Shown here piece by piece: positions 963-63,288 of a stretch of 64,000 nt of DNA (position 1 is its first letter; each line of letters opens with the position of its first letter). The notes under the pieces are model-generated. The model saw only the letters and a list, made by a program, of their open reading frames with translations, was not told where the DNA came from and made no database searches. This DNA comes from Syntrophales bacterium (GTDB lineage: Bacteria; Desulfobacterota; Syntrophia; Syntrophales; PHBD01), in assembly GCA_963668175.1 (NCBI GenBank), contig OY764159.1, forward strand, positions 2,592,001 through 2,656,000. Direction: 5' to 3'. The position numbers and the translations under genes were made by a program.

Positions 963-2576
963 TTATCCGGGCAGGGGCGAAAGCGAGGCCGCATGCCTTC
1001 CGGCGATCCGGCCGGAGGCCCAGGCCTCGGGATAATTGGATCCCACCTGGTAGAGGAAGCCGAAGAAGGAACCGAGTTCGCCCGCGGCGTAAAGCCTGGG
1101 GACGGGCCTGCCGTCGGGGTCCAGGACCTGGCCGTGGCGGTTCCGCTTCGGGCCCCCCTGCGTGTTTACGAGGGCGAGGCCCAGTTCCAGGGCATAGAAG
1201 GGCGGCGCCGCCAACGGTTCCATGGATTGGGGGGCGCGGCCGAATTCGGTGTCTTTTCCGGCCTCGGCGTCCCGGTTGAAACGGCCGACGGTCTCTTCCA
1301 GCCCATTCGCGTCGATGCCGCACCTGCCGGCCAGTTCGGCAATCGTATCCCCCTTGACGATCCAGCCCTTTGCCACTTCCGCCGCGTTGTCGCGGCTCCA
1401 GTCGTAGACCTGGTGGACCTCCGCGTAGCCGACGGGTTCCGACGGCTTCCGGGAGACGGGACCGGCCCGCCGGTGGGCCTCGTCGAAGACGAGATAGGCC
1501 GGCAGATGGGGGTACTCGGCCCGGTCGTGATCGAACCGGAGGATTTCCAGGGGGTCCCTGGTGTGATAGATGCGCTTCGTCTCCCGCATGAACCGCCTGC
1601 CGTACCTGTCGGCGAAAAGGAAACGCCCCGTCGCCGGGTTCCAGGGGATGCGCTCGGCGACGGCGACGCCGAAATGCCTGCTCGGCGCCTTCGCGCAGAA
1701 GCTTGCCCATTGCAGCGGCGCCGTATGCCAAAGGCAGGCGCCGGCCGCGGCGGCCATCTTCAGGCCGTCCCCCGTATTGCCCGGGGTCCCCAGGGGAAAG
1801 ACGTATCCGCTCACGCCCGGGTGGTTATAGTATCCGAACATTTCCGGGTTGTTTTCATAGCCGCCGCAGGCGAGGACGATGCCCCGGCGCGCCCTGATGT
1901 ATATCTCGCGGCCTTCGCTCAACGCCCTCACGCCCGCGACCTCGCCGGTCTCCGGGACCGTGACGAGATTCGCGGCGGCCGTCTTCACCATGACCCTGAT
2001 GTTCCTTTTCCCGACGAGGCGGGCGAGGAAGGCGAAGCCGTCTCTCCCCGTCGGATTGAAACGGAAGGCGGGGATCTTGGCTTTTCTGAGGGACGGGAAG
2101 TCGGGCGTTCTCGCGCCGATGTTCGGTCTTGCGCCCAGCCGCCGGAGGAGGTCGGGGACGCCGACCATCGCCTCGGCGAAACCGGCCAGCATGTCTTCGT
2201 CGACGGTGCCGAACGAGAGCCTGCGGTAATAGTCGGCCGCCTCGGAGACGTCGGCCGGGATGACCATGCCGCCGTGGCAGACGCCGCTGTTTCCCCCCGG
2301 AACGTCCATCTTTTCGAGAATGACGACGCGGGCGCCGTCGTCGTGGGCGGCGAGGGCGGCGCTCCCGCCCGCGGCGCCGTATCCGACGATCACGACGTCC
2401 GCCGTGTCGTCCCATTGCCGAACCTGTTTATAAGGAACGGACGCCGCCTCCGCGGGACGCAGGCCCGCAAGGCCCGTCGCGGCAATGCCCGCCGCCCCCC
2501 TGAGGAACGCTCTGCGGCTTACGCCATGGCCCGATTTCGTTCGATCCATGTTCGAGGAATCTTTCGTGCGGCGCAT
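963..2576 (-). CDS. Tat-exported FAD-dependent oxidoreductase (flavocytochrome c/fumarate reductase/3-ketosteroid dehydrogenase flavoprotein family)
   Basis: SRRAFL twin-arginine signal; VVIVGYGAAG FAD motif; GNTGDG, TQGG, LYAAGE. Start may be 2549. Confidence 0.85.
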   Translation of the reverse strand: MRRTKDSSNMDRTKSGHGVSRRAFLRGAAGIAATGLAGLRPAEAASVPYKQVRQWDDTADVVIVGYGAAGGSAALAAHDDGARVVILEKMDVPGGNSGVCHGGMVIPADVSEAADYYRRLSFGTVDEDMLAGFAEAMVGVPDLLRRLGARPNIGARTPDFPSLRKAKIPAFRFNPTGRDGFAFLARLVGKRNIRVMVKTAAANLVTVPETGEVAGVRALSEGREIYIRARRGIVLACGGYENNPEMFGYYNHPGVSGYVFPLGTPGNTGDGLKMAAAAGACLWHTAPLQWASFCAKAPSRHFGVAVAERIPWNPATGRFLFADRYGRRFMRETKRIYHTRDPLEILRFDHDRAEYPHLPAYLVFDEAHRRAGPVSRKPSEPVGYAEVHQVYDWSRDNAAEVAKGWIVKGDTIAELAGRCGIDANGLEETVGRFNRDAEAGKDTEFGRAPQSMEPLAAPPFYALELGLALVNTQGGPKRNRHGQVLDPDGRPVPRLYAAGELGSFFGFLYQVGSNYPEAWASGRIAGRHAASLSPLPG

Positions 2577-2594
2577 CGCCGTCCGGTCGGCCCG

Positions 2595-3095
2595 TCAGTC
2601 GGTTTCGTAGCAGGCGACGATTTCGCCGAAATAGAGGGTATGGTAATCTTTCTTGGGATAGAAGGACGCATCGACGGCCCCATCGAGGTTTGCCTGGTCC
2701 ATGGCCGTCTTGTAAACGATCCGGCATTCGTAATGACGCCCCGGAACCTTGATGATCGGGGATTCGACTTGCCGGGATGCCGCTGTGGTAAGTCCACAGC
2801 CTTGGAACTTGTCCATCACGCGGCCCGATTGCGAACCGCAGAAGGCCAGTTCCCTGGCGAAGCCCCCTGCCGGGATGGTAACGGTAAAGTCCTTCGCCGC
2901 CTCGATAATCCCGAAGGTATGCCGGCTCGGCCTTACGGCCACCATCATGATCCGCTTGCCCCAGACCACGCCCAGGGTGGCCCAGCCGATGGTCATGGTA
3001 TTGAGCCCCTTGTCCGACCTGACGGTCAGGAAGGCGCCTTCGCTCATTTTCCTGATGCTGTCTTGGGCGGCCGCCATATAGTGTACGTCTTGCAT
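2595..3095 (-). CDS. Flavin reductase family protein
   Basis: NTMTIGW, VRPSRHT, CGSQSGR..DK, HTLYFGEI motifs. Confidence 0.85.
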   Translation of the reverse strand: MQDVHYMAAAQDSIRKMSEGAFLTVRSDKGLNTMTIGWATLGVVWGKRIMMVAVRPSRHTFGIIEAAKDFTVTIPAGGFARELAFCGSQSGRVMDKFQGCGLTTAASRQVESPIIKVPGRHYECRIVYKTAMDQANLDGAVDASFYPKKDYHTLYFGEIVACYETD

Positions 3096-3216
3096 GGCTT
3101 CTCCTCGTAAGAAATTTCGGATGCCACCGTCTTACCACTGCGGCGGCGAAAGCGCAACGGCCGGATCGAGCGGGACCGGCCGCGAGAAAGGCATGCCGGG
3201 TAATGCAGGCCCGTTC

Positions 3217-4179
3217 CTATTCGAGCCAGCCCAGCTTCACGCCCGCCCACACGCCGGCGAACACGCTGGTCATGAAGATGAAGCTGCTGACCGCAAAGAT
3301 CGGCACGCCGCTCAGGCCGTGGAGAACGTTGTCCCCCATGGCGACAGCGGCCGCGATGCCCATGACAAACCCGCCCGCAAGCGATGCGGGGATGCGTTTG
3401 TTGCTGTAAGGCTTGCCCGGGGACTTCCCCTTCGTCTTGCTCGCAATCAACGCCCCGATGGGCACGCCGAGCACCATGAAGACGCTCCCGTCGAACCCGG
3501 ACCAGTCGCCCTGGAGGAGGAGTGAAACGAGCCCGTCGCTGCCCTGCGTCATGCCGAGGCCGTAGGGCTTCCCGGCGAGGTTGCGGACCTCCCAGGCGGC
3601 GATGCCGATAAGCCCGATGGCGACGCCGGTGATCTGCCAGTTCCATCCGCCCTGGTAGGAATAGCTGCGGACACGGAGCACCCAGACAATGACGACGATG
3701 ATGAATACCGACACGAAGAGGATGCGGTTGATGTCGAAGACATGGTGAAAGGTCGTCGAGAGGGACCGGCTGTAAAAGAACTGGTGGACGGCCGGGGCGA
3801 TCCAGTCGTTGCTGAACCACACCCCGACGGCGAAAGCGCCGATGGTCCAGAGGTAATCGAGTTTGCCCTCGCCGGCGCGGTAGAAGACGGCCCCCGCGCA
3901 GCCCACGGCCAGGACCATGCCGAGGCCGTACACGAATCCCGCCGCCATGGTGATGAAGCCGAAACTCAGGGGCACCGTTACGCGCAGATACCCGAATTCG
4001 GTGAGCAAGTTGACCGCGAGCATCTGGACCAGGACGGCCAGGAGATAAGTTCGGAGCATGTACGGCTCACGGCCGGTTACAACCTCGTAGGAGGCTGAGA
4101 GCATTCAGAAACGCCCCCGTTGGGAGACGTAACCGAAGGCCAGGCCGACGGCGAGTCCGAGTAGGATCGAGGTTATCAT
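3217..4179 (-). CDS. YeeE/YedE sulfur-compound transporter, probable selenoprotein (in-frame TGA at 4105-4107)
   Basis: MITSILLGLAVGLAFGYVSQRGRF-TGA-MLSA continues in frame into the 295-aa ORF. TGA sits at the Cys of the family QRGRFC motif. GLGMVLAVGC motif also present. Confidence 0.8.
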
Positions 4180-4241
4180 GTTTAAAGACCCGTTGCTATA
4201 GACTGGCGCTGAGTAAATATTCGGCAGGCGGAGCCGTCCGT

Positions 4242-4766
4242 TTACGGCCGCTTCCGGGACTGCCTGCCGTCGCATCCCATCCTGCGGCAGAGCCGCTTGT
4301 GTTCGGCGGCGGTGATCCACGGGACGTTGAGGTAATCGCGGAGCATGCCGTCCTTCATGCCGATGCGGCGTCCCTCCCTGACCGTCACTTCGTAGGCCTC
4401 GATTTCCGTATCGCGGTCCACGTACGACTTCTGCCTTTCGAAAAGGTCCCGGCCGTCCAGGTGCTGCTTCACGTGACAGAGTTCGTGGATGATATCCAGG
4501 TAGAGGAACCTAAGCGACGCGCTTTTCAGGTAATTGAGGCCGATGTTGATCGAGCCGTCGTCGTTGTCGACGGACATCACGTGGGGCGAATCCAGGATGA
4601 AGACTTCCGTTCTTTCCATGACATCGTCGAATTCACGCTTGTCGGTGAAGATCGTGCGCAGGATATCGTAGGAGCGGATATCGGGAAAAATCTCCGCCAG
4701 GCGGTATTGACCCGGCCCGACTGACCGGTTGATATGGAAGGTGTTCTCTCTTGCGTTCGCCGTCAT
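4242..4766 (-). CDS. Hypothetical protein with HExxH (HELCH) zinc-metallopeptidase-like motif
   Basis: IIHELCH followed by a downstream EIEAY. Confidence 0.6.
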   Translation of the reverse strand: MTANARENTFHINRSVGPGQYRLAEIFPDIRSYDILRTIFTDKREFDDVMERTEVFILDSPHVMSVDNDDGSINIGLNYLKSASLRFLYLDIIHELCHVKQHLDGRDLFERQKSYVDRDTEIEAYEVTVREGRRIGMKDGMLRDYLNVPWITAAEHKRLCRRMGCDGRQSRKRP

Positions 4767-5085
4767 ACCTGTTCACCGTCATGCCTGTCCGCAATCGTGC
4801 CGCGGTGGAATGCGCCCGTCGGCGAACTGTCCGGCCGCCTTTGCGGCTTCCGGAGCAATCCATTCCGAGACGTTCTAACTTATATTAATATAGGGTATGG
4901 GAAGTCAAAATGCAAAAAAATGGACGGAAAATTTTTTGCCGCCGCCGGGGGCGGAGAAATCAATTTGTATGAAACAAGTACTTAAATCCCGGGGCAGTCA
5001 TGTATCTTGTATCGACGGAGCCGGATGCCACAAGCAGTAGTAGTATGGAAAGGTGCAGGCGTAACGAGGCCGGACCGCTTTTACC

Positions 5086-5271: not shown

Positions 5272-5315
5272 TATAATATGTCAAGAATAACGTCTGAAAA
5301 GTGGGAGGAATCGTC

Positions 5316-6002
5316 ATGAAAAAAATCGTACTCATTATCGCTGCTTTTTTTGCCCTGACGACGGGGGTTGCTTTTGCAGGCACTATTTACGACAACGGGT
5401 TACCTAATCTTTCAGATGCTGTGTTCAGTGATCCCAGTGCTACTGACTCAAATGGATTGACGCAAACAGCGGCGGGCAGTTTCTGGGTGTCGGGGTCCAG
5501 TAATCTTACAGATATCCATTGGTGGGGCATATACGGCAATGCGGTGCAGTCTCTGAATAACTTTACGATCAATATCTATGAAACGGCCGCAGCGGCCAAC
5601 CTGCCCGGATCTTTATATAAAAATGTCACGATAACAAACCTAACCGTCACCAATACCGGTACAAGAATAACGGATACTACTTACGGTGTTTACAAATATG
5701 ACATCACGATCAATCCGATTGCATTGTCTGCCGGAGTGATCTACTGGCTGGAAATCGTGAACACGACTGAGAATGGCGAGTGGGCTTGGGCAACTGCTGA
5801 TGGAAAAGATACAACTGCTTTTTTTAAGGACGGCAATTGGAATCTCTTAATTTTTGAAGATGGATCGACGGAGCAGCTTGCATTCTATTTAACCGACGAC
5901 GTCGAGGAGCCGCCGACGGGCGTTCCCGAACCCGGTACGATGATGCTTCTGGGCCTCGGCCTCGCGGGCGCTGCGGCCGCCAGGAAGCATTTCCGCAGAT
6001 AA
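5316..6002 (+). CDS. PEP-CTERM sorting domain protein
   Basis: Signal peptide; C-terminal VPEPGT + hydrophobic helix + RKHFRR; GGAGG RBS before ATG 5316. Confidence 0.9.
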   Translation: MKKIVLIIAAFFALTTGVAFAGTIYDNGLPNLSDAVFSDPSATDSNGLTQTAAGSFWVSGSSNLTDIHWWGIYGNAVQSLNNFTINIYETAAAANLPGSLYKNVTITNLTVTNTGTRITDTTYGVYKYDITINPIALSAGVIYWLEIVNTTENGEWAWATADGKDTTAFFKDGNWNLLIFEDGSTEQLAFYLTDDVEEPPTGVPEPGTMMLLGLGLAGAAAARKHFRR

Positions 6003-7498: not shown

Positions 7499-9553
7499 TC
7501 AGGGTTTTTTCCTGACGACGACGGCCTGCCTGGCGTTGATCGTCACGAGGTCGTCGGCCGCACCCGCCACTTCGATATAGCTACCCCTGGCCGCGTAAGC
7601 CTCGCCGCTGTCGATGGCGCTGTCGTAGGCGACGGTGTCGTTGGCGTTGAAGACGATCACCCGTCCCTGTTTCGGCTTGGTATAGTTCATGATCAGGTCT
7701 TCCGCCGCCAGGAGCCATTCGCTGTAGCCTTCGTCCCCGATCTTCACGGATGTCTCCCCGGGCTTCAGGGCAGCGGCGGCGCTGTCCGCCGGGCTGTAGA
7801 GCATGTCCGAGGTCCAGGCCCACATGGCGCCGTTCCTTTCGAAGATGAAGAGCTCCGTCTGATCGCGGACGGCGTCGAAGGGCATGGCGGCGTATTCGGG
7901 GGAATCGATCCTCTTGACGCCCCGGAAGGCGACGTATCCCGGCAGGTCCTTGTAGAGGTGCGACATTTCCAGGTGCGAATCCGTCGCCGCGACCGACTCG
8001 AAGGGCGCGACGTTCCTTCGCAGCCAGACCTTGCCGTCCATGCCGATCCTCAGGTTTTGCGGCTTGGCTAAAGGATTGACCTTCTGCATGGCGATCGCGT
8101 CGACTTTAAGCGTGGGGTTCGACTGGACAAAATAGGTTTCGGGGCCGATGGAGGCAAAGTAGAAGTCGTTTCCCTTGCCGTCATGATAGAAACCGCCGGA
8201 ATAGGCGAGGGCGACGACCGGCTTCTTTTCCTGTCCCTCGAAACTGAAGACGGCGACGCTCTTCCTGTCGGCGGCGAAGACGATCTGGGCGAGGCCGCCC
8301 TGGCTGCCGTAGTAGCCGCCGAACTGCACATCCTCCTGCGGAATGAGCGCCGCTGCGGGCGGTGCCGTGACGCCTTTTTCTTCCTTAGGGATCATTTTTT
8401 TCCCGACGAGGACCGCGTCCAGCAGATCGAGGGCGATCAGCATCGCGCCGCTCTGCGGCCCGGTCGCAATGACCGCGACGGAGATCTTCCTGTCGGGCGC
8501 CGTATAGACCATCGACGAGTAATTGCCGGTGCCGCCGCTCTTGCCCAGGACCTTGATCCCGGCGGCGTCGTACCGCGCCAGGCCCGTGAGGTCCCAGCCG
8601 AGGCCGAAGGAAAGTTCCGGCTGGCGGAGTTTGCCCGCAAATGCCGACGGCTGCGCCTTCTTCATTTCTGCAAGGGAGGCCTTCTTCAAAAGCCTGTTTT
8701 CCGCGGCGAAGGCGTCGGCGAAGCGGCAAAGCTCCACGGCGGTCGAGGACAGGCCGCCCGCGCCGAGCACCGACAGGGCTTCCGGCGGATGCTTCTTGCC
8801 CGTCGTCGGATCGTAGTAGGCCGCAACGGGTTTTCCCCTAATCCCGCCCACGCTTACGCCCGTGTTTTTCAGGCCCAGCGGTTTGAAGATGCGCCGGTTG
8901 AGGAAGTCGAGGTACGTCATGCCGCTCATGCGCTCCACGATCATTTCCGCCAGGGTGAAGCCGTCGTTGCAGTAGACGGCCATCGCCCCCGGCGCATGCT
9001 TGAGATGGCTGCGGGTCAGGGTTTCGATGGTGTCCTGCTTCACCTTGTCGTTGTATTTGAATCCGAAGGCGTTCGCGTATTCGGTGCCGGGGAGGCCGGA
9101 CGTGTGGTTCAGGAGCATGCGGACGGTGATCGCCCGGTAGCGGCTGTCGGCCATCCGGAACTGCGGGAGATAATACGAAGCGGGCTTGTCGAGGTCGATC
9201 CTGCCGTCGTCCGCGAGGAGCATGACCGCCGCCGCCACATAGACCTTGCTGACGGAGCCGATGTTGAAGAGGGTGGAGGCGTCGACGGGGACGGATTTCT
9301 CCCTGTCGGCCATGCCGAAGCCCTCGGCGTAGACGGTCTTGCCGTCGACGGTGATCGCGGCGGAGGCGCTCCCGCATTTGCCGCTGTTAATGGCCTTCCA
9401 TATGTCGCCGCGGACTTTCTCTATGGCGGTTTCGTAAGGATTGGGTCCGGTATTGGGGGCGGGTTTTGCTTTGCCGGCCGCGTGGGCGGCGGTGAGCGAG
9501 ACAACCAGGAGAAAACAGAGACAAACGGCGCCGATGGCGCGGATATTCTTCAT
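7499..9553 (-). CDS. Secreted serine hydrolase (beta-lactamase class C/PBP family)
   Basis: Signal peptide; FNIGSVSK (SxxK), LLNHTSGL, YCN, KSGGT. Confidence 0.85.
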   Translation of the reverse strand: MKNIRAIGAVCLCFLLVVSLTAAHAAGKAKPAPNTGPNPYETAIEKVRGDIWKAINSGKCGSASAAITVDGKTVYAEGFGMADREKSVPVDASTLFNIGSVSKVYVAAAVMLLADDGRIDLDKPASYYLPQFRMADSRYRAITVRMLLNHTSGLPGTEYANAFGFKYNDKVKQDTIETLTRSHLKHAPGAMAVYCNDGFTLAEMIVERMSGMTYLDFLNRRIFKPLGLKNTGVSVGGIRGKPVAAYYDPTTGKKHPPEALSVLGAGGLSSTAVELCRFADAFAAENRLLKKASLAEMKKAQPSAFAGKLRQPELSFGLGWDLTGLARYDAAGIKVLGKSGGTGNYSSMVYTAPDRKISVAVIATGPQSGAMLIALDLLDAVLVGKKMIPKEEKGVTAPPAAALIPQEDVQFGGYYGSQGGLAQIVFAADRKSVAVFSFEGQEKKPVVALAYSGGFYHDGKGNDFYFASIGPETYFVQSNPTLKVDAIAMQKVNPLAKPQNLRIGMDGKVWLRRNVAPFESVAATDSHLEMSHLYKDLPGYVAFRGVKRIDSPEYAAMPFDAVRDQTELFIFERNGAMWAWTSDMLYSPADSAAAALKPGETSVKIGDEGYSEWLLAAEDLIMNYTKPKQGRVIVFNANDTVAYDSAIDSGEAYAARGSYIEVAGAADDLVTINARQAVVVRKKP

Positions 9554-10357: not shown

Positions 10358-10423
10358 AGAAACGGCCCCCGTTGCCGGTTCGTCGCCCGGCTGCGGGAGC
10401 CGCATCCCAAAAGGTGTTGCGAA
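10358..10423 (-). repeat. Repeated terminator-like hairpin, copy 1 of 3
   Basis: AGAAACGGCCCCC..CCGGTTCGTCGCCCGGC.GCGGG.GCCGC also occurs at 19591-19645 and 21577-21648. Confidence 0.75.
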
Positions 10424-10527
10424 GCTATGTCGGGTACCGGCCGTCGGCCGGTACGGCTTGTCTTTGCTCGGGCCTCGCGCCGGACGATTGCCCGGAAGCC
10501 GCCCGTACTGTCCGGCGAATCCCGCTC

Positions 10528-11202
10528 TCAGGGGAAGCCGACCCAGGTCGTGACGCCGGCGGCGGGCAGGCGGCCCGGGGCGATGGTGTTCACGGTTTCT
10601 CCCTCCTTGGGCCAGCCGATGGAAATGGCGATGACGAGGCGCTTCGATTCGGGGATGCCCGCATGCTGACGGACCACGTCGGGATACATGATGCCCTGGT
10701 CGTGGATGCAGGTGCCGAGGCCGTAGCTCATCGCGACGAGGCAGATGTTCTGCATGAGGCCGCCGCAGTCGAGGAGCGGCCCGACGGCGGAGAGCGATTT
10801 ATCGACGGAGACGACGATTGCGGCCGGGGCGTTGAAGAAGCTGAAACCGCGCTCCATCCAGGCGGCCCGCTTCGCCTTGTCCGTCCGCTGGATGTCCATG
10901 ATCTCGAAAATATACTTGGCGAGGTCCACCTGCCGGGTCCGGTAGACGCTGTCGTTCGTCCAGCCGATGACGTCGATCTCCGCGTACGGCGCGATGCCGT
11001 CACGGACCTTCTTCACGTTCCCCTCGATGATCTTCCGGAGGGGTTCCCCGGCAAGGATGGTGAACTCCCACGGCTGCGTGTTCATGGCCGACGGCGCCCG
11101 GACGGCGATCTCCAGGATCTCCGCGATGGTCTCCCTCGGGACCGGGTCGGTCTTGTAGCCCCTTGTGCTCCTGCGCGTCTTGATGGCATCGACAATGTCC
11201 AT
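10528..11202 (-). CDS. Nitroreductase family protein
   Basis: RRSTRGY, APSAMNTQPW, GLGTC motifs. Confidence 0.9.
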   Translation of the reverse strand: MDIVDAIKTRRSTRGYKTDPVPRETIAEILEIAVRAPSAMNTQPWEFTILAGEPLRKIIEGNVKKVRDGIAPYAEIDVIGWTNDSVYRTRQVDLAKYIFEIMDIQRTDKAKRAAWMERGFSFFNAPAAIVVSVDKSLSAVGPLLDCGGLMQNICLVAMSYGLGTCIHDQGIMYPDVVRQHAGIPESKRLVIAISIGWPKEGETVNTIAPGRLPAAGVTTWVGFP

Positions 11203-11560
11203 TCCTGCTCCCCCTTTCGGTATTCTGTATGCGGTGTTGCGATTCGGCGAGTGTGTAGATTGGAAAGCCTTAGCACGAATTCAATGCCGATTACCATCAA
11301 GAAGATGCACGGGGAAAATATTTCTGCGCGGCATCGGCGGCGCGGCGCAGTTGACGGCCGCGGGAAAGTGACGATAATTTCCGGACGATCAGCCGCGGAA
11401 TATCTTTTTAGGAAACTTGTGGGGAGAGAAATGAAAGCGGGAGCAAGTTTTCGTCAGTTTAACCCATAATATTTGGGCAACGTAAACTCCGCAGGAATTT
11501 AGCACATTCTGGTCATTATTAGATAAACCGAACAGTCTAAATATCGAGTCAAGTTGATTT

Positions 11561-12106: not shown

Positions 12107-12162
12107 TGCCTAATATGTCTCCATTCTTGATTAAGTATCATGACCTATACGAATAATTCCGT

Positions 12163-12179
12163 AATTCCGGGGACACCAT
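12163..12179. repeat. GGGGACA-type inverted-repeat family, site 1 (single arm)
   Basis: AATTCCGGGGACACCAT, essentially the reverse complement of the ATGGTGTCCCCGGAAT arm at ~17809-17824. Confidence 0.7.
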
Positions 12180-12228
12180 TTGATACTGCCGCTGCGTTCG
12201 TTTGCGGAAGAGCGGCGCACTGGACGGG

Positions 12229-13368
12229 TCAGGGCTTCAGATTGGTGTGAATGATCCTCGCGCCGTCGAAGCCGTTGAAGCGGGTGGACGAGGCCGTGCT
12301 GTAGGCGCCGATGTTGTCCGTCAGGAGGTAATCCCCGATTTCCAGGTTTCCCGGAAGCTGCACCGAGAGCGATATCTTGTCGAAGCTGTCGCAGGTCGGC
12401 CCGACCACGGCGCACACCTCTTTTTTCCCGCGCTTGAACGAACTGAAATTGGGCAGCCAGTGGTCGTAGATCACGCCGGAGAAGGTGTGATAGACGCCGT
12501 CGTTGATATAATAGAACAGCTTGCCGTCCCTCCGGGACTTGCCGATGATTTCGGTGATCAGCGTCGCCGCGGTCGCCGCGATGAATCTGCCCGGCTCCGC
12601 GATGATTTCGATATCCTTGGGGAAGAGCCGGTTGCATTCGTCGTCGATGAGGTTCGCCAGCTTCCCGAATTCCGGAACCTGCGAGTCGTAGGGCACGGGA
12701 AATCCCCCGCCGATGTCCAGGATCTTGAGGGAATGCCCCTTCTGCCTGGCGTCTTTCAGGATCGTCGAGGCGATGGCGAGCGCTTCGGTATAATTGTTGA
12801 AGTTCGTGCACTGGCTTCCCACGTGGAAGCTCACCCCTTCGACATCGAGCCCCTCCTCGCTCGCCTTTTGGATCAGATGGTCGGCTTCCGCCGGTTCGGC
12901 CCCGAATTTCGTGCTCATTTCGACCTGCGAGCCGGTATCGGGCACCTTCAGCCTGAGGACCAGGCCGGCCGTGTCGCAGCATTCCTTGATTTTCTTCAAC
13001 TCTTCGATATTGTCGAAGGTGACCAGGGGCCGGTACTGCCTGATTCTGCGGAGCGTCTCCTTGTCCTTGATGGTGTTGGAAAAAATGATCTTGTCCCAGA
13101 TATACGAATGCTGGTCTTCTTCCTCGAAGTGCTTGATGTATTCGTAGATCTGCATGAATTCGTTGTAGGAGGCGACGTCGAAGCTGGACCCCTCGCGGAA
13201 GAGGGTCCCGATGATCTCCGGGTGGGAATTGGCCTTCACCGCGTAATAGCATTGAACCCGGGGCAGGTTCTTCTTGAAGGTCCGGTAATTCTCCCGCAGC
13301 TTCGCGTGGTCCAGGATGAAGAGGGGCGTTCCGTGCGTCTTGATCAGGTCGGTGAGTTGTTTATTCAT
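12229..13368 (-). CDS. Ornithine/lysine decarboxylase (alanine-racemase fold, PLP)
   Basis: YAVKAN, FDVAS, KFGA, HVGSQ, DIGGGF, EPGR, GPTCD. Confidence 0.9.
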   Translation of the reverse strand: MNKQLTDLIKTHGTPLFILDHAKLRENYRTFKKNLPRVQCYYAVKANSHPEIIGTLFREGSSFDVASYNEFMQIYEYIKHFEEEDQHSYIWDKIIFSNTIKDKETLRRIRQYRPLVTFDNIEELKKIKECCDTAGLVLRLKVPDTGSQVEMSTKFGAEPAEADHLIQKASEEGLDVEGVSFHVGSQCTNFNNYTEALAIASTILKDARQKGHSLKILDIGGGFPVPYDSQVPEFGKLANLIDDECNRLFPKDIEIIAEPGRFIAATAATLITEIIGKSRRDGKLFYYINDGVYHTFSGVIYDHWLPNFSSFKRGKKEVCAVVGPTCDSFDKISLSVQLPGNLEIGDYLLTDNIGAYSTASSTRFNGFDGARIIHTNLKP

Positions 13369-14558
13369 TTTCGCTTCTTCGCCGCGAGATTTTTCATGAG
13401 CCGTGTGAGCTCACCGACCTCTTTGTTGTTTTCCAGGTAGGACTCGGCCAGCTTTTCGCGCAGCTCCTCCCCGCGGTCGTAAAGCCTTTTCTGCTTCCTG
13501 GGCTTGGTCGCATGCAGGACGTAGGCGACCATCAGCGGCAGGGCCACCGTGACGTCGAGATAGGCGGTGACCGCCTCTTCCAGCATCGTCGGGTCGATCT
13601 TGCCCCAGCTCGCCGCCTCGCTGGGCGGGGCCCCGGACAATCCGCCCGTATCGGGCCTCGCGTCGGTGACGTTGATGTCGTAATCCTGCCCCACCTCGGG
13701 GATCATGAGGACTTCCTGGATCTGCGGCTCCGTCTGGAGCATGAAATTCTTCGGGCTGCCGCCGCCGATGAGGATCACGCCGGTCTTCCCCTTCTCGTAA
13801 CGCTTGGCGTTCAGGATGATGGCGGTCGAATCGTTGACGTCGATGCTCGGGTTGATCTTCAGTTTGAAGGCGTTCTGCATGCCGGCCGTTTCCGCCAGGA
13901 GTTCCAGGCCGGCGACGTTCATGCCGATGGTGGAGTCGCCGGGCGACGACGTGAACACGGGGATGCCGTTCCGGTAGGCGGCGGCGAGGATGCTCACCTC
14001 TCCGAGTTTGTGTTTCTTTTCGTAGTCGTTCATCGCCTTGCCCAGGTGGTGGTAATATTCGCGGGTTCCCATCTCTTTCTGGAACTCCGGCTGGAGCATG
14101 ATCTTTCTCAAACGGCGGTCCGTCTCCATCAGCACGTCTTCGTAATCGAACAGGATGTCGTAAATCCGGGTCACGCCTTTGTCCCGCAGGTCGGCGTCGC
14201 TCACGGTATGGGAGCCGCGGTGCATGGGCAGGTTGAAGGCGAAGTGCAGGTCGTGGTACATGTTCGCGCCGGTGGCCGTCATCCAGTCGACAAAGCCGTG
14301 ATTCATGAGGGGGATGATCGCCGAAGGCCCCAGCCCCGCCGGGGTCAGCGCACCCGCCAGGCTCAAGCCCACGGTGACGTCGTTCCGGGAATACCTGTCC
14401 CGGAGCAGATGGCAGGCGGCCCGCAGCCGCCCGCCGTTGTAGGCATCCATATTGTCGATCAGTCTGACGATATCCGTCTTCTTCGAGATCGGTTCGGGGA
14501 GGATTCTCTTGCCGCAGAGATATTTCGATTTTCCGGGACATTCGGCTTTTTTCTTCAT
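13365..14558 (-). CDS. Deoxyhypusine synthase-like protein (putative homospermidine synthase)
   Basis: GGGSPKNF, DTGGLSGA.PSEA.SWGK (catalytic Lys position). Overlaps the ODC start by 4 nt. Start 14558 chosen from the upstream AGAAAGG. Confidence 0.85.
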   Translation of the reverse strand: MKKKAECPGKSKYLCGKRILPEPISKKTDIVRLIDNMDAYNGGRLRAACHLLRDRYSRNDVTVGLSLAGALTPAGLGPSAIIPLMNHGFVDWMTATGANMYHDLHFAFNLPMHRGSHTVSDADLRDKGVTRIYDILFDYEDVLMETDRRLRKIMLQPEFQKEMGTREYYHHLGKAMNDYEKKHKLGEVSILAAAYRNGIPVFTSSPGDSTIGMNVAGLELLAETAGMQNAFKLKINPSIDVNDSTAIILNAKRYEKGKTGVILIGGGSPKNFMLQTEPQIQEVLMIPEVGQDYDINVTDARPDTGGLSGAPPSEAASWGKIDPTMLEEAVTAYLDVTVALPLMVAYVLHATKPRKQKRLYDRGEELREKLAESYLENNKEVGELTRLMKNLAAKKRK

Positions 14559-15571: not shown

Positions 15572-16183
15572 CTATTTATGAAACTTCTTTCCGGCTGCCG
15601 TTGCGCCGAGCAGGCCGAGGCCCAAAAGCAGGACCGTAGACGGTTCGGGAACGGCCTGCGTGGTCTCCATGATCGCCGGGCCCGATAAGCACTCTACCGT
15701 TTCCATGGTATACTCATAGGCGCCGACATAAGTGATCGCCATGGCGCTGTTCGTGCCCAGGCTAACGCCGTCGGCCCGGAAACTGAAAGTGGCGGCAGAG
15801 CCCGTCTGGTAGACGGAACTCGGGTCCACGCCCCACCAGTACAACCATTCATACCCCGACGCGAGCGTTACAGGCACAAAGTAGGACGAAGCGCTCGGCG
15901 ACCAGTCGGCCGGGGCAATAATGGCCGTCCAGTACCCGCCGCCGGCCGGATTGTAAGCCGCCGGACTGGTGACATTCGCCAGGCTGACCGACCCCGTGGG
16001 CACCATGACGAAGAAGCCGTCCAACCCTTGGGACGCGCCGTTATTGGTCACCGTATAGGTGAAGTTATAGGAATCGCTGTCAATTTGAGTAATGGTTTCC
16101 TGGACGGTATAGGAACCCGCCGAAACCGTACTGCCGATCAGGAGCAATCCCGCGATTAAAAAGAACATGAATCTCTTCTTCAT
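15572..16183 (-). CDS. PEP-CTERM sorting domain protein
   Basis: Signal peptide; VPEPST + TM helix + KKFHK. Confidence 0.9.
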   Translation of the reverse strand: MKKRFMFFLIAGLLLIGSTVSAGSYTVQETITQIDSDSYNFTYTVTNNGASQGLDGFFVMVPTGSVSLANVTSPAAYNPAGGGYWTAIIAPADWSPSASSYFVPVTLASGYEWLYWWGVDPSSVYQTGSAATFSFRADGVSLGTNSAMAITYVGAYEYTMETVECLSGPAIMETTQAVPEPSTVLLLGLGLLGATAAGKKFHK

Positions 16184-27807: not shown

Positions 27808-29376
27808 TTACGCCCAGGGTTTCAGCCCGGCGATCCTCGCGCCGGCGAGGCGGCCGAAGGTAACGGCGTTCGTGAGGTGCCAGCCGCTCCGGTAGCCCAC
27901 GCTGTTCGTGTAGCCGCCCGCAACGTGGCCCGCCGCATAGAGGCGGGGGATGATCTGCATGTCGGGGTCGAGGACGTGGGACTCGTCGTCGATCCGGAGT
28001 CCCCCCATCGTCATGACGATGCCCACGAGGCCCTTCCATCCGTAGAAGGGAGGCGTCTTCAGTTCGATCAGGTACTTGGGGTTGCGGCGGAACTGGGCGT
28101 CTTCCTTCTTCGCCACGGCCTGGTTGTAGGCCTCCACGGTCTTCTTGAGGCCCGCGGGGTCGATGGAAAGCTTTCCCGCCAGCTCTTCCAGGGTGTCGGC
28201 CTTCTTGATGATGTAGCCGTCGCCCTTGATCCCCTTGAGGAAAAGCTCCTGCTGTCCGCGGAAGTTCGTGGAGAGGCGGGGATTCGCCGCGATGTCCTTC
28301 GCCGCCGTTTCGTCGAAGACGCAGACGAACTGGTTGTTCACCTTCTGGACCTCGGGCATCAGCGGCGTGTAGTGGCCCTGGACGATCTCGTCGCAGAAGC
28401 GCCTGCCGCCCTTGTCGACGAGGATGAGGCCGCTCCTCGCCAGGAGGTCGTAGCGGCACCAGAGGGTGTACTTGCCCGGGGCGACCTCGACGCAGTGGGG
28501 ATGGCCCTCGGGGGAGAAGCCCGTGATGTCCGCGCCCAGTTTCTGGGCCATGCGGATGCCGTCGCCGGTGTTGCCCGGGTGGCCGACGAAGATCGAGCCC
28601 TTGAGTTCCGGGAAGTGGCCCTCGATGTAGGGCTGGTTGGCGGCGAAGTCGCCCGTCGCGATGAGGACGGCCTTCTTCACCTTGATGTTCATGACCTTGC
28701 CTTTTTCGCCCACGCACTCGACGCCGGCCACCTCGCCCAGGGGCGTGGACAGGCCGCAGTTGTCCAGATAGAGCCTCGTGGCCTTCGTTTCGAGGAGGAT
28801 GGGCACCTTGCGCTTACGCACCTCGCCCGTGAGGGCCTTCATGAGCTTCGCGCCGCCGTTGGCCTCGCGGTAGCAGCGGTCCACCGTGTAACCGGGCAGG
28901 GGATCGACGTTGGTCCACTTCAGGCCCGCGGCCTGGAGGAACTTGTACGTGTCGAGGGCGTTCTCGATGAGCTTGCGGGCCAGCTTCGGGTTGACGCCGT
29001 TGTTCGACGTCTTCATCGTGTCCTGGTACCACTTTTCGTTGGAATCGTTGGTGATCCCGGCGGCCTTCTGGAGGTCCGTCCCTGCCGCCATGACCGTTCC
29101 CGAGGATAGGAGGCCCGCCCCGCCGGGGAAGGGCATCTTTTCCAGGACGAGGACCGATTTGTCCCCGGCGTCGGCGGCGGCGATGGCCGCGGAGCAGCCC
29201 GCCACGCCCGCGCCGATGATGAGAATGTTGACCTCGCGATCCCACTTCTTAGGCGGCTGCGCCGCCTGCGCATCTTTGCCGCTTAAATTGACGAGGGCAA
29301 GCGAACCCAGGCCCGCGGCCGTAGCCTTCATGAATCCCCGTCTCGAAAAAGACGTCTTTTTGCGTTCTTCCGACAT
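27808..29376 (-). CDS. Tat-exported flavocytochrome c flavin subunit
   Basis: SRRGFM signal; IIGAGVAG; GNTGDG; TMGGL; LYAAG. Confidence 0.85.
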   Translation of the reverse strand: MSEERKKTSFSRRGFMKATAAGLGSLALVNLSGKDAQAAQPPKKWDREVNILIIGAGVAGCSAAIAAADAGDKSVLVLEKMPFPGGAGLLSSGTVMAAGTDLQKAAGITNDSNEKWYQDTMKTSNNGVNPKLARKLIENALDTYKFLQAAGLKWTNVDPLPGYTVDRCYREANGGAKLMKALTGEVRKRKVPILLETKATRLYLDNCGLSTPLGEVAGVECVGEKGKVMNIKVKKAVLIATGDFAANQPYIEGHFPELKGSIFVGHPGNTGDGIRMAQKLGADITGFSPEGHPHCVEVAPGKYTLWCRYDLLARSGLILVDKGGRRFCDEIVQGHYTPLMPEVQKVNNQFVCVFDETAAKDIAANPRLSTNFRGQQELFLKGIKGDGYIIKKADTLEELAGKLSIDPAGLKKTVEAYNQAVAKKEDAQFRRNPKYLIELKTPPFYGWKGLVGIVMTMGGLRIDDESHVLDPDMQIIPRLYAAGHVAGGYTNSVGYRSGWHLTNAVTFGRLAGARIAGLKPWA

Positions 29377-29426
29377 TTTTTTATTCCCTTTCTTTCATAT
29401 GTTGTTTCTTAACACCGATTCAGGCA

Positions 29427-30098
29427 TTACTTCTTTTTGGAGAAATAGCCGAAGTTGTGGCACTTCGCGCAGTAGTCCTCGGAAGCGGCGTGGGCCTTGT
29501 GGCAGAGGGTGCAGCGGATCTCGCCCAGGTGGCTTTCGTGGGGGTTGGGTTTGACCTTCGCCGTCTTGGCGGCCACGGCGGCATAGCCCTTGTGGCACTC
29601 CAGGCAGCGCTCCTCGGAGGCCCTCTCCTCGGGGAAGAACGAGTCGTGGCACCCTGTGCAGGAGAGTTTCTTCAAGGCGTGCGTATGGTCCAGGTAGGAC
29701 GATTTCGCCCAGGTCTTGAAATACGGGAGCATGGCGTCGGCCTTCTCTTTGGCGGCGGCAACGCCCTTGCCGTCGGCGCCGGAAAGAACGAACTGCCCGC
29801 CGGGCCCCTGTTCGTGGCACACGCCGCAGGTGCCGGCGAATTTATCCCGGGAAAAATGGCCGTAATGGACGGGCCGCTCCAGGGGCTTGGCTGCGCCGTT
29901 GACCGAGTGGCACCCCAGGCACTGCTTGACGCCTGCGCCGGGAACCGGCGGGTGGGCCTTGGGGAGTGTGGCGGAAAGCTGCGGGTGGCAGCTTGTACAG
30001 CCTTTGGACGCGGTTGCCGTCCGGGCGGTGCCGGAAAAGAGCAATACGGCGGCCGCAAGGGCGATTACCGTTGTCGTTAAAAAGAGTTTCTGTTTCAT
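29427..30098 (-). CDS. Periplasmic multiheme cytochrome c (7 CxxCH)
   Basis: CTSCH, CLGCH, CGVCH, CTGCH, CLECH, CTLCH, CAKCH; NPHESH; signal peptide. Confidence 0.9.
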   Translation of the reverse strand: MKQKLFLTTTVIALAAAVLLFSGTARTATASKGCTSCHPQLSATLPKAHPPVPGAGVKQCLGCHSVNGAAKPLERPVHYGHFSRDKFAGTCGVCHEQGPGGQFVLSGADGKGVAAAKEKADAMLPYFKTWAKSSYLDHTHALKKLSCTGCHDSFFPEERASEERCLECHKGYAAVAAKTAKVKPNPHESHLGEIRCTLCHKAHAASEDYCAKCHNFGYFSKKK

Positions 30099-37725: not shown

Positions 37726-38610
37726 ATGGAAGCAACGTGGATACTCGCAGCGATGTCGGCCGCCTTATGCGGCGGAACGGCCGACGCCTTCACGAAGAAG
37801 GCCATGCAGGGACACGACGTGTATGCCGTCGCCTGGCTGCGGCAAGTCGTGGTTGTCGCTCTTTTGGCGCCGGTTCTCTTTTTCATCCCCGTGCCCGCTC
37901 TCGACGGCGTTTTCTATGAATCCATCCTTTGCGCCCTGCCGTTCGAGATCGCGGCCTATGTCCTGTATATGAAGGCCATCAGGACGTCGCCGCTCAGCCT
38001 CACCGTGCCGTTCCTGGCGCTGACGCCGGTGGCGCTCATCGCCATCTCCTACGTCGCCCTGGGGGAGCGGGTGTCCCCGTTGGGCGGCGTCGGCATCCTG
38101 GCGATCGCCCTGGGCAGCTACACGCTGAACCTGAAGGAGGCGGGCCGGGGGGTGCTGGCGCCGATCAGGGCCATCGCCAGGGAGCGGGGCTCCGTCATGA
38201 TGATCGCCGTGGCGGTCCTTTACGCCTTCACGAACACCTTCGGCAAGCAGGGCATCAACCATTCGTCGGCGCTCTTCTTCGGCATCGTTTACAACCTGGC
38301 CTTCTTCGCCGTCGTGAGCCCGGTCCTGTTCAGGCTGGGGAATCTGCATGCCGGGGGCCGCCTTTCCAGGGGCGCATTGAAGGCGGTCCTCTTTCCCGGC
38401 TGCGTCGCCGCCGCCAACGCGATCTTTTACAACATCGCCATGTCCATGGCGCAGGCGGCGTATGCGGTCGCCGTCTTTCGCCTGAGCCTGCTCGTCGGCG
38501 TCGTCTACGGCCATTTCCTGTTCGGGGAGACGGGATTCCGGGAGCGGCTGGCGGGTTCCGCGCTCATGCTCGCAGGATTCGCGATGATCGTTTTGAGCCG
38601 GCGAGCTTGA
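37726..38610 (+). CDS. EamA/DMT family transporter
   Basis: About ten TM helices in two repeats; LGER and FGE motifs. Confidence 0.85.
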   Translation: MEATWILAAMSAALCGGTADAFTKKAMQGHDVYAVAWLRQVVVVALLAPVLFFIPVPALDGVFYESILCALPFEIAAYVLYMKAIRTSPLSLTVPFLALTPVALIAISYVALGERVSPLGGVGILAIALGSYTLNLKEAGRGVLAPIRAIARERGSVMMIAVAVLYAFTNTFGKQGINHSSALFFGIVYNLAFFAVVSPVLFRLGNLHAGGRLSRGALKAVLFPGCVAAANAIFYNIAMSMAQAAYAVAVFRLSLLVGVVYGHFLFGETGFRERLAGSALMLAGFAMIVLSRRA

Positions 38611-38751
38611 CGATACGATAATCCGTTTCCGCATGAGAAATCGGAGCGGTTTCTGTTCAAGAAGCAAACAGGCTTCGTGAAAAAGCCGGGTCTCCATACC
38701 GTATCGTTACGGCAGACGGCCCGGCTTGGTCGATAGTATGATGGTTTTCTT

Positions 38752-45904: not shown

Positions 45905-45930
45905 TTGACAATCTTATCATCCGTTGATAA
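45905..45930 (+). promoter_or_regulatory. Promoter/operator of TA module
   Basis: TTGACA at 45905; palindrome TTATCA-N5-TGATAA at 45914-45930. Confidence 0.5.
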
Positions 45931-45943
45931 CCTATCGGCCGCG

Positions 45944-46291
45944 ATGAAAGACAAAAACGACTATGAATTGCAGACGTTATTGGATTTGTCTGGTCATGTA
46001 TATTATTTGGAAGGCGGGAGATATTGGGTAAAGTTTTCGGCGTCAAGGGTTGTTCCTTCCGAATTCATACCGCACGGGATCAAGTACTCGTTAACGCTGC
46101 ATGACCGGAACAACACAAGAATCGTTGGGTACGACAATGCGCACGACTGTCTGCCGAAAAGAAAACCTTACAGGGCCAGGAAGGTCACATGGGACCATGT
46201 CCACAAGAGAGATAAGGTCGAACCCTATGAATTCGATTCGGCGTCGCAACTGATGGAAGATTTTTGGGAGACGGTCAACAGCTTTATTTAG
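45944..46291 (+). CDS. DUF6516/TumE-like putative toxin
   Basis: PHGIKYSLTLHD...R..GYDNAH...DH.H. Confidence 0.7.
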   Translation: MKDKNDYELQTLLDLSGHVYYLEGGRYWVKFSASRVVPSEFIPHGIKYSLTLHDRNNTRIVGYDNAHDCLPKRKPYRARKVTWDHVHKRDKVEPYEFDSASQLMEDFWETVNSFI

Positions 46292-46311
46292 GGACGCAGG
46301 GGGTATTTGCA

Positions 46312-46668
46312 ATGGCAAAGGAAATGAAGATAGGGATTATGCCCAGGGAAGATTTCCAGGCCTATACCCTGGCCGTTGCCAGGGGCGAAAAGAAACTGAC
46401 CGGGAAAGAACCTAAGGTTTGGTTCGATTCCGTGGAATCCATGGCGCAGGTTCTGAGCACGAAAAACAGGGAGCTTCTGAAAATTATTCAGGAGCAGAAA
46501 CCGGAATCGCTGACGGAACTGGCGGCCGAATCGGGCCGGCGGCTGGCGAATCTGTCCCGGACGCTGAAAAACATGGAGCGCTACGGGATCGTCGAACTGG
46601 ACAAAGAAGGCGGTTCCGTGAAACCGAAAGTCCGCGTCAGTAAATTCCACGCGGTTTTCAGCTTGTAG
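46312..46668 (+). CDS. Winged-HTH putative antitoxin/regulator
   Basis: LS.KNRELL..I....PESLTELA..SGR...NLSRTLK..ERYGIV. Confidence 0.75.
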   Translation: MAKEMKIGIMPREDFQAYTLAVARGEKKLTGKEPKVWFDSVESMAQVLSTKNRELLKIIQEQKPESLTELAAESGRRLANLSRTLKNMERYGIVELDKEGGSVKPKVRVSKFHAVFSL

Positions 46669-52340: not shown

Positions 52341-52898
52341 ATGAAACGCAAGATTGTACTTTTTCTGTTGGGCTTCGTGTTCATGCCGGCTTTGGCGTCG
52401 GCGGCGTCATTCAATTTCACCGGGACGATCAGTTACAATACCGATGTCGTGCAAATCACCTTCACCCTGTTAAACGATGCGACCAATGTGAGCCTTTACA
52501 CGAACTCGTTTAACGGCGGGGCGAACTTCGATCCCATAACGGCCTTGTGGACCGGCAGCGGCGCCTTGATCGCCCAAAACGACGACATAGATACCGCAAG
52601 CATCAATTTTGATTCGGGTATCTATCTCAGTTCGCTTTCGGCGGGGACCTATATCCTCACGATTGCGGCCTATGACAATTGGTCAAACGGTTTGACGCTG
52701 GCCGAAGGATTCTGGTACGACGGCACGGAGCCGGTGGCGATTACGGAATGGAGCGGCGGCTCCGGCTACTACAGCGTGGTTCTCGAAGGCGTCGATTCGG
52801 CAGTCGATACCACGGCGGTTCCGGAACCGGCCACCGTACTGCTTCTGGGATTGGGCCTGGTAGGCGCGGCCGTTGCCCGCAAGAAGTTTCGCAAGTAG
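52341..52898 (+). CDS. PEP-CTERM sorting domain protein (DVUA0089-like)
   Basis: Signal peptide; FDP..ALW...NDD; VPEPAT + TM + RKKFRK. Confidence 0.9.
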   Translation: MKRKIVLFLLGFVFMPALASAASFNFTGTISYNTDVVQITFTLLNDATNVSLYTNSFNGGANFDPITALWTGSGALIAQNDDIDTASINFDSGIYLSSLSAGTYILTIAAYDNWSNGLTLAEGFWYDGTEPVAITEWSGGSGYYSVVLEGVDSAVDTTAVPEPATVLLLGLGLVGAAVARKKFRK

Positions 52899-62676: not shown

Positions 62677-63288
62677 ATGAAAGCTGTCTTTAAATTATTT
62701 ATCTTCGCTTCGTGCGTGATTCTGACGTTCATCGCCGCCGCGGGTCAGGCGGCGCTGGACATGGACCGCTTCGACGAATTCATCGGGGCGCTTACAGCTG
62801 TCGGCGGCGACGTCGAAAAGCATGTCGACATTGCGCAGCCCCGGGGCAGCTTCGAGCCGACCCCTCTTATAGAGAAAGAGCCGGTGCAAACCGACACTGC
62901 GGGTGCTGCGAATCAGACCCCGTCGAATCCCCGCGATGTTTCCCCTCCGCCTGGCGGTCAGGCCGTTCCCGTCAAACGGAGCGCCGAAGGACCGGCCGTC
63001 CGGCTGGCCAACGCCGTTTATACGTCCGGCGAGGAAAGCGAGTTCAGGGGTTTCTTCTCTTCCGACGACGATTTCCTCTATGCCGACGGCAATCCCTACA
63101 AGCCCGAAGGGCAGAGTGGCTGGACAGGTCCCGGCAAGATCGTCTATACGGCGGATCCGCCCGGCGGCGATCCCGGCCCCGCAACGGCGGGAGCGCCCGC
63201 GGCTCAGGTCCCCGAACCCGGGACGATGACGCTTCTCGGGCTGGCCGTGGCCGGCGCAGCGGCGATGCGGAAAAAGTCCATGAGGTGA
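62677..63288 (+). CDS. PEP-CTERM sorting domain protein
   Basis: Signal peptide; VPEPGT + TM + RKKSMR. Confidence 0.85.
   Translation: MKAVFKLFIFASCVILTFIAAAGQAALDMDRFDEFIGALTAVGGDVEKHVDIAQPRGSFEPTPLIEKEPVQTDTAGAANQTPSNPRDVSPPPGGQAVPVKRSAEGPAVRLANAVYTSGEESEFRGFFSSDDDFLYADGNPYKPEGQSGWTGPGKIVYTADPPGGDPGPATAGAPAAQVPEPGTMTLLGLAVAGAAAMRKKSMR

Follow-up and report, generated by a model that had tools for sequence, protein, structure and literature searches.

In a 64,000-nt stretch of the genome of a Syntrophales bacterium (GenBank assembly GCA_963668175.1, contig OY764159.1, positions 2,592,001 to 2,656,000; the whole stretch is called the window below), we found a gene of the YeeE/YedE transporter family with an in-frame UGA at codon 25. 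Judging from sequence, we consider it highly likely that this is a genuine selenoprotein gene in which the UGA specifies selenocysteine (Sec). The complete coding sequence lies on the minus strand at positions 3217..4179 and gives a 320-residue protein when TGA is translated as Sec. It starts at an ATG (4179-4177), and its first 24 codons (4108..4179; MITSILLGLAVGLAFGYVSQRGRF) end in QRGRF. The TGA follows at 4107-4105, with an ATG directly behind it, and the frame then runs through 295 codons up to a TAG at 3219-3217. Coordinates and sequence are as laid out in the original prediction, an earlier reading of the same DNA that had proposed a Sec-containing membrane transporter with 24 codons before the TGA and 295 in-frame residues after it. 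A list of open reading frames (ORFs) made with genetic code table 11 holds the 295-codon ORF 3217..4104 alone at this locus.

A scan of genome contigs recovered 21 related loci, of which 18 had TGA at the same column and three had TGC, the latter being the most distant (33%–36% identity). The original prediction called for homologs with TGA or Cys at this position in more than one assembly, and this is what the loci contain. Since the TGA column recurs in 18 of 21 loci and the frame is kept on both sides of it, the arrangement is more than chance. According to their record titles, the 18 TGA loci come from Chloroflexota (eight), Nitrospirota/Nitrospiraceae (five), Methylomirabilota/NC10 (two), organisms labeled "delta proteobacterium" (two), and Baltobacteraceae (one). 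Counting the window, the stop at the column is TGA in 19 out of 19 sequences; TAA and TAG do not occur there. Coding selection acts on the codons ahead of it: Over the 18 codons before the TGA, 171 pairwise comparisons among these 19 sequences gave 1351 synonymous and 775 nonsynonymous codon differences, and the mean minor-base fraction was 0.19 at the first, 0.09 at the second, and 0.41 at the third codon position. The Baltobacteraceae copy (L019, 10058-10120) keeps the TGA and loses the frame ∼40 nt downstream, perhaps owing to a frameshift, an assembly error, or gene decay; a second Sulf_transp ORF (7913-9046) lies 1 kb upstream of it on the other strand.

In a protein database search that scored 8000 candidates, 159 relatives reached E ≤ 0.001, and we examined the best 120 of the 159; the counts that follow refer to these listed matches. 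The subfamily of the window protein, recognizable by a GDN motif, made up 77 of the 120. Most of its clusters (63 out of 77) begin with the Met that comes next after the UGA column, another eight start further downstream or are fragments, and six are full length (P0031, P0049, P0050, P0054, P0055, and P0057), reading …GY(V/A/I)SQRGRFCM… with Cys at the column. All 43 sequences outside the subfamily likewise show Cys at this position; 41 were recognized by pattern, and P0089 and P0118 were judged by eye. The proposal that Sec occupies a conserved Cys column was thus borne out both by the six close and by the 43 distant homologs. Across 76 clusters, the protein after the TGA is 42%–92% identical. 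Just outside the subfamily, two Cys-type relatives (P0081 and P0094) are fused to a TusA domain (PF01206). Three records of NCBI origin are identical to the post-TGA ORFs (295 or 296 residues) of contig loci (P0019 to L005, P0021 to L004, and P0069 to L017), which shows that the deposited annotation of these three loci is the shortened product. As the original prediction had anticipated for gene callers, public annotations very probably shorten the protein from 320 to 295 residues.

To follow the two states through the family, we inferred a tree of 91 rows from the protein sequence that follows the UGA column, leaving out L016 (partial), L019 (disrupted frame), eight forms truncated further downstream, and three post-column forms outside 293–298 residues. 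The GDN subfamily formed one clade of 83 rows (Shimodaira–Hasegawa-like approximate likelihood ratio test support of 100, stem length of 1.32). Sec is its majority state, with 77 Sec-type rows (17 assigned by DNA and 60 inferred from a truncated gene call) and six Cys-type rows that fall at four places. The whole tree requires at least five state changes, three of which are forced by the starred branches alone. Plausibly, Sec is ancestral in the subfamily and has been exchanged repeatedly with Cys.

The read-through product is a full-length member of its family. It matched the Pfam family Sulf_transp (PF04143) with 172.5 bits (E = 2e-50, cut-off of 27) over the complete profile (1–310 of 310), in line with the predicted 320-residue membrane transporter-family protein. 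Residues 6–313 aligned with StYeeE, a thiosulfate uptake protein of known structure (6LEO; E = 2.3e-30), and in this alignment the UGA codon (4105..4107) fell on Cys22 of StYeeE, within the motif QRGRIC. The codon for Cys94 (TGC, 3898..3900, loop LB) fell on the essential Cys91, and the codon for Asp283 (GAC, 3331..3333, loop LD), within GDN, fell on the periplasmic Cys293, within GCN. Instead of three pore cysteines in loops LA, LB, and LD, the window protein therefore has UGA/Sec, Cys94, and Asp283. Cys94 was invariant in three subfamily alignments (A1, A2, and A4), and Asp283, which the original prediction had already noticed as a replacement of the third Cys, was invariant in 45 out of 45 subfamily sequences and serves as the subfamily signature; together with Sec or Cys at residue 25 and Cys94, it sets the subfamily apart.

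The model that AlphaFold2 produced from an alignment of 26 rows had a mean predicted local distance difference test score (pLDDT) of 82.6 and a predicted template modeling score of 0.85, with the first 30 residues at a pLDDT of 91–93. The model has the hourglass fold of the family, with nine transmembrane helices and four short re-entrant helices. Conservation and the model indicate that the 24 codons upstream of the UGA encode transmembrane helix H1 and, with …GYVSQRGRF, lead into loop LA; residues 2–22 are helical with a pLDDT above 90, and residue 25 starts a short helix. A Foldseek comparison with 6LEO gave a template modeling (TM) score of 0.87 and a root-mean-square deviation of 2.6 Å, and the best match outside YeeE had a TM score of 0.23.

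We then asked whether the RNA downstream of the UGA shows signs of a selenocysteine insertion sequence (SECIS). We aligned the 90 nt surrounding the UGA for the window plus 17 loci, with L019 and the three loci that have TGC omitted, and obtained an RNAalifold consensus of two adjacent hairpins, A and B, that also covary. Hairpin A (4080..4097, minus strand), which appears in the minimum free energy (MFE) fold of the window as well, begins 7–8 nt after the UGA and has a 6- to 7-bp stem and a CUAC loop; its consensus spans nt 12–27 from the U of UGA (4081-4096 in the window, which has one extra pair), with YUAC or similar in the loop. Hairpin B (4062..4076, minus strand), our candidate SelB-binding stem–loop, has a CGGC/GCCG stem and a CGUGA loop; its consensus runs from nt 32/33 to nt 45/46 from the U of UGA with a CGUGN loop, and the apical loop lies at 34–38 nt. 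The two-hairpin structure paired 92.4% of the alignment cells, with 15 cells in five pairs changed on both sides. None of 500 shuffles matched it in pairing, compensatory-cell count, or covariation score, and slid controls paired 28%–43%. The covarying columns are third codon positions, so protein conservation alone fails to explain the pairing: In hairpin A, the Ser/Val columns 27/42 read GC in 10 sequences, CG in three, and AU, GU, and UG in one each, with two unpaired; in hairpin B, the Thr/Pro columns 48/60 read CG in 12, UA in four, and GC in one, with one unpaired. When each Sec-type sequence was compared with synonymous recodings of itself that kept the codon usage of the gene, eight of the 18 folded better than 95% of the recodings. 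Bacterial SECIS models take a G in the apical loop and a limited distance from the UGA as criteria. Owing to the G-U at loop positions 2–3 and its distance from the UGA, which is within the range for bacterial SECIS elements, hairpin B is our preferred candidate for the element bound by SelB.

The original prediction had put forward a different SECIS, a hairpin with an AGGU loop at nt 13–36 after the UGA (4072..4095, minus strand) that excludes both A and B. Its base pairs (GCC 13–15 with GGC 34–36, and UACG 19–22 with UGUA 27–30) are present in the sequence. As a conserved element, we rejected it for lack of covariation support: Among the 18 sequences, it showed no compensatory changes and 75.4% pairing, and 494 out of 500 shuffles did as well, leaving A and B as the supported structure. 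An extended, nested form of 14 pairs fared similarly (75.4% paired, one compensatory cell, 471 out of 500 shuffles as good) and was also rejected. The nested form is the MFE fold in L001 and L002 (10076-10115 in both; −22 and −26 kcal/mol), where it is far more stable than synonymous recodings (z of −4.2 and −4.8, respectively), and it may be an alternative conformer, perhaps a lineage-specific SECIS, in the clade of the window. An Rfam scan of window positions 3000-4800 gave no matches beyond two at chance level (a miRNA and an XIST repeat), and a promoter and terminator scan gave nothing informative.

A sign of Sec machinery in a carrier came from an Anaerolineales contig (L017), in which ARAGORN identified a tRNA-Sec with anticodon TCA at 4780-4873, 2.9 kb downstream of its Sec-type YeeE gene. 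The Rfam model RF01852 scored 69.5 bits, above its gathering score of 47. The neighbor of this tRNA is a PAS/GAF/HD-domain protein and not selA or selB. We also considered an AIRS-family protein near the L001 gene as a possible SelD and rejected it, as it is PurM.

Several observations weigh against our interpretation. No selA, selB, selC, or selD was found in the 64-kb window (no tRNA, and no sel-type Pfam domain among 70 ORFs), and no other domain spanned a TGA among the 49 of 103 read-through candidates from the window, chosen by eye as likeliest to fall on real genes, that were scanned. The majority of the Sec rows of the tree (60 out of 77) rest on truncated gene calls and not on DNA. On the RNA side, the shuffle control for the covariation of A and B leaves in the relatedness among the sequences, and the loop of hairpin A has no G, while hairpin B is far from the UGA. 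The 3′ region of the window itself is not unusually stable (86 nt, z of −0.52 against dinucleotide shuffles and −0.42 against synonymous recodings). The mutually exclusive nested and A-plus-B folds tie in the window at −12.1 each, and with two exclusive folds equal in energy the SelB-binding element of the window is less certain. Other points concern function. The scores of equivalog models were far under their cut-offs, both for TsuA (NF052577, 150.5 vs. 400 bits; NF041049, 100.8 vs. 645 bits) and for YedE/FdhT (NF033796, 78.3 vs. 350; TIGR04112, 36.7 vs. 200). With all NCBIfam matches below threshold, the protein is a YeeE family member that belongs to no named functional group. Among the ORFs scanned in the 18 loci, there was also no neighborhood conserved across phyla and no TusA-like neighbor.

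These points have to be set against what the other explanations of the locus would require. If the TGA were a true stop, the gene would be split into a 24-residue peptide and, through coupled restart at UGAAUG, a 295-residue YeeE without helix 1. An ATG stands right behind the TGA in the window and in 16 of the 18 loci that have TGA, which would suit this explanation, as would the 63 listed clusters in which the shorter product is called and the window's lack of sel genes and tRNA. However, the codon after the TGA is ATA in L007 and ATT in L019, and the Met is conserved equally behind Cys in the full-length forms, which makes it a residue of the family and not a start signal; restart at the ATG is therefore unlikely. 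A plain stop would also be expected neither to be TGA without exception and exactly on a universally conserved Cys, nor to be followed by a covarying RNA structure, nor to cut off a first helix that is modeled confidently as part of the fold. Taken together, we regard a true stop as very unlikely.

That the gene is broken, or that a sequencing or assembly error created the stop at codon 25, is extremely unlikely. A single early in-frame stop is the usual sign of a pseudogene, and L019 does lose its frame shortly after the TGA, yet 18 independent assemblies, spread over five groups, have the TGA, the sequence on either side of it is under purifying selection, and the protein after it is conserved across the listed clusters. 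A third explanation, in which the UGA is read as Cys, Trp, or Gly through near-cognate or suppressor decoding or a variant code, accommodates the sequence evidence insofar as this shows translation and equivalence to Cys alone. Against it, TGA ends nine of the 22 Pfam-supported ORFs of the window as an ordinary stop, which indicates that the code is not globally changed, and the lineages that carry the gene are not known for UGA reassignment. The conserved stem–loop region 3′ of the UGA and the tRNA-Sec in L017 fit Sec, and we judge decoding as a standard amino acid highly unlikely.

Comparison with known systems helped us to place the Sec-type protein. As described in excerpts of the structural report on StYeeE (PMC7449682), the constriction is lined by three cysteines, one each from loops LA, LB, and LD, at spacings of ∼7 Å. 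On the periplasmic side, C293 is the residue that binds thiosulfate; C22, on the cytoplasmic side, is disulfide-bonded to C91 in the crystal and in about half of the purified protein. The C22A variant still complements, whereas the equivalent Cys of the Escherichia coli protein is essential (excerpts of PMC7449682). In the YeeE–YeeD complex, C22 lies at the interface beside the catalytic Cys17 of YeeD (excerpts of PMC11073785). The window protein resembles StYeeE and E. coli YeeE (TsuA; 6LEO and 8K1R) in its Pfam family, its fold, and its four re-entrant loops, and it has in common with StYeeE the middle Cys (C94 for C91) and a cytoplasmic Arg/Glu pair (R101 and E104 for R98 and E101). It differs in overall sequence (∼27% identity), in the proposed exchange of the LA Cys for Sec, in the exchange of the thiosulfate-binding LD Cys for Asp, and in an aromatic residue in place of R28 of StYeeE. 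Unlike TsuA, it has no adjacent yeeD/tsuB among the ORFs scanned in the window and the 18 related loci.

Other relatives are more distant in sequence or in setting. YedE/FdhT proteins, putative selenium transporters that comparative genomics connects with selenium metabolism (PMC5322559, as cited in excerpts of PMC9312934), belong to the same superfamily, but their matches to the window protein are partial and weak, and the window gene has no yedF/SirA-like neighbor. The full-length YeeE-like sulfur importers SoxT1A and SoxT1B, whose three pore cysteines are essential (excerpts of PMC11582611), keep all three Cys and lie in sox/shdr clusters, a context that the window gene lacks.

A Sec-containing "YeeE/YedE family protein" with the exemplar WP_012471001.1 is listed in two reviews (excerpts of PMC9312934 and PMC13188914); the entry in PMC13188914 gives the Sec motif GUxSG, and the table excerpted from PMC9312934 gives no motif. 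In the deep-Sep supplement, WP_012471001.1 and two further members are half-size proteins of ∼175 residues with the loop G-U-P-S-G-H-G-L-S-G, and the deep-Sep family table has a single YeeE/YedE row. Like the window protein, this type belongs to PF04143 and has Sec in place of a conserved pore-loop Cys. The window protein, in contrast, has 320 residues and its proposed Sec in loop LA (R-G-R-F-U), not the half-size form with GUxSG. By eye, the loop of the WP_012471001.1 type corresponds to the GDNVLHGLSG site of the window protein (Cys293 in StYeeE), although the motif could also fit the Cys91 loop (GCAGA in the window protein, with Cys and not Sec). A full-text search of the literature found no full-length YeeE/YedE protein whose first Cys is replaced by Sec. 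The names YeeE, YedE, and DUF395 are absent from the main text of PMC2398784 and PMC5029168, which are cited for the review entry, and from that of PMC1976440, and the BSepDB supplement has no YeeE/YedE entry. With the window protein, YeeE/YedE would gain a subfamily of full-length proteins and another site for Sec, the only printed Sec form that we found being half-size.

Based on these comparisons, we propose how the protein may be made and may work. A single gene would encode a full-length, nine-helix, YeeE/TsuA-like channel or transporter of the inner membrane. SelB carrying Sec-tRNA would read the UGA, guided by the downstream structure, with hairpin B as the SelB site and hairpin A as a spacer that makes the RNA more compact. 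Homology with StYeeE would put residue 25 beside Cys94, in loop LA, at the end of the central constriction that faces the cytoplasm. Sec25 would then be the reactive site on the cytoplasmic side, taking up or releasing a sulfur- or selenium-containing substrate, and it could form a selenenyl-sulfide with Cys94. The case for the transport of sulfur or selenium species through a YeeE-like relay seems to us evenly balanced. A thiosulfate importer should not be assumed, given that the outer Cys is replaced by Asp and that there is no adjacent TusA/YeeD partner. Owing to the invariant Asp, the aromatic residue in place of R28, and the absence of a YeeD nearby, the substrate and its hand-off may differ from those of TsuA.

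We also considered a more far-reaching role, which we think doubtful though worth stating. Sec25 would sit where TsuA hands its substrate to the catalytic Cys of YeeD, and it could act as a built-in catalytic chalcogen acceptor that attacks a sulfane-sulfur or selenium species, with Cys94 resolving the adduct through a selenenyl-sulfide. If so, transport and the first step of chemical processing would be joined in one polypeptide without YeeD. Combined with the Cys-to-Asp exchange at the outer mouth, such an acceptor would point to the transport of something different from thiosulfate, perhaps a selenium species.

The gene sits between a 174-residue ORF (4242-4766, minus strand) and a pair of oxidoreductase genes (2595-3095 and 963-2576, both on the minus strand). 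The 174-residue ORF, on the upstream side, has an HExxH-like motif (HELCH) and no Pfam or NCBIfam match. The flavin-reductase-like gene at 2595-3095 ends in TGA, and six codons later the same frame continues in an FAD_binding_2/flavocytochrome-c-like oxidoreductase (963-2576); no domain spans this TGA, and 963-3095 therefore looks like two ordinary adjacent genes. For the related loci, we scanned 71 of the 125 ORFs within about ±3.5 kb of the gene in the 18 loci, giving 72 proteins together with the upstream ORF of the window. A TusA/YeeD-like domain (PF01206) was found neither among these 72 proteins nor among the window ORFs scanned. The neighbors that do recur are specific to lineages, with UPF0182 in Chloroflexota and a major facilitator superfamily transporter plus an aminotransferase in Nitrospirota.

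Elsewhere in the window, we noted several further features. A second FAD_binding_2 oxidoreductase adjoins a multiheme cytochrome c3/c7-type protein (27808-30098, minus strand) in a split, flavocytochrome-c-like arrangement. At 45905-46668 (plus strand), an ORF resembling the TumE toxin precedes an overlapping one of the HVO_A0114 family, making a probable toxin–antitoxin pair. Four small proteins (5301-6002, 15572-16183, 52341-52898, and 62677-63288) have PEP-CTERM sorting motifs at their C termini, which suggests an exosortase system in the host. Long ORFs without a family match lie antisense to or overlap real genes at 993-3110 (plus), 12202-13440 (plus), 10372-11469 (plus), and 37765-38697 (minus). 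The genes that they overlap are the flavin reductase/FAD-binding pair, an Orn/DAP decarboxylase (12148-13368, minus), a nitroreductase (∼10531-11202, minus), and an EamA transporter (∼37726-38610, plus). Calling genes by the longest ORF is misleading in this sequence of 57% G+C.

If the UGA is read as Sec, a widespread membrane protein is being systematically misannotated as a product of 295 residues, without helix 1 and without one residue of the pore. Selenocysteine inside a transport pathway is rare. In the Sec-type proteins, it would mark the cytoplasm-side Cys of the YeeE relay, a residue whose role is debated in view of its differing importance in StYeeE and E. coli. The natural Sec/Cys pair at this pore site would offer a handle on the question of hydrogen bonding versus covalent chemistry in the function of the pore cysteines.

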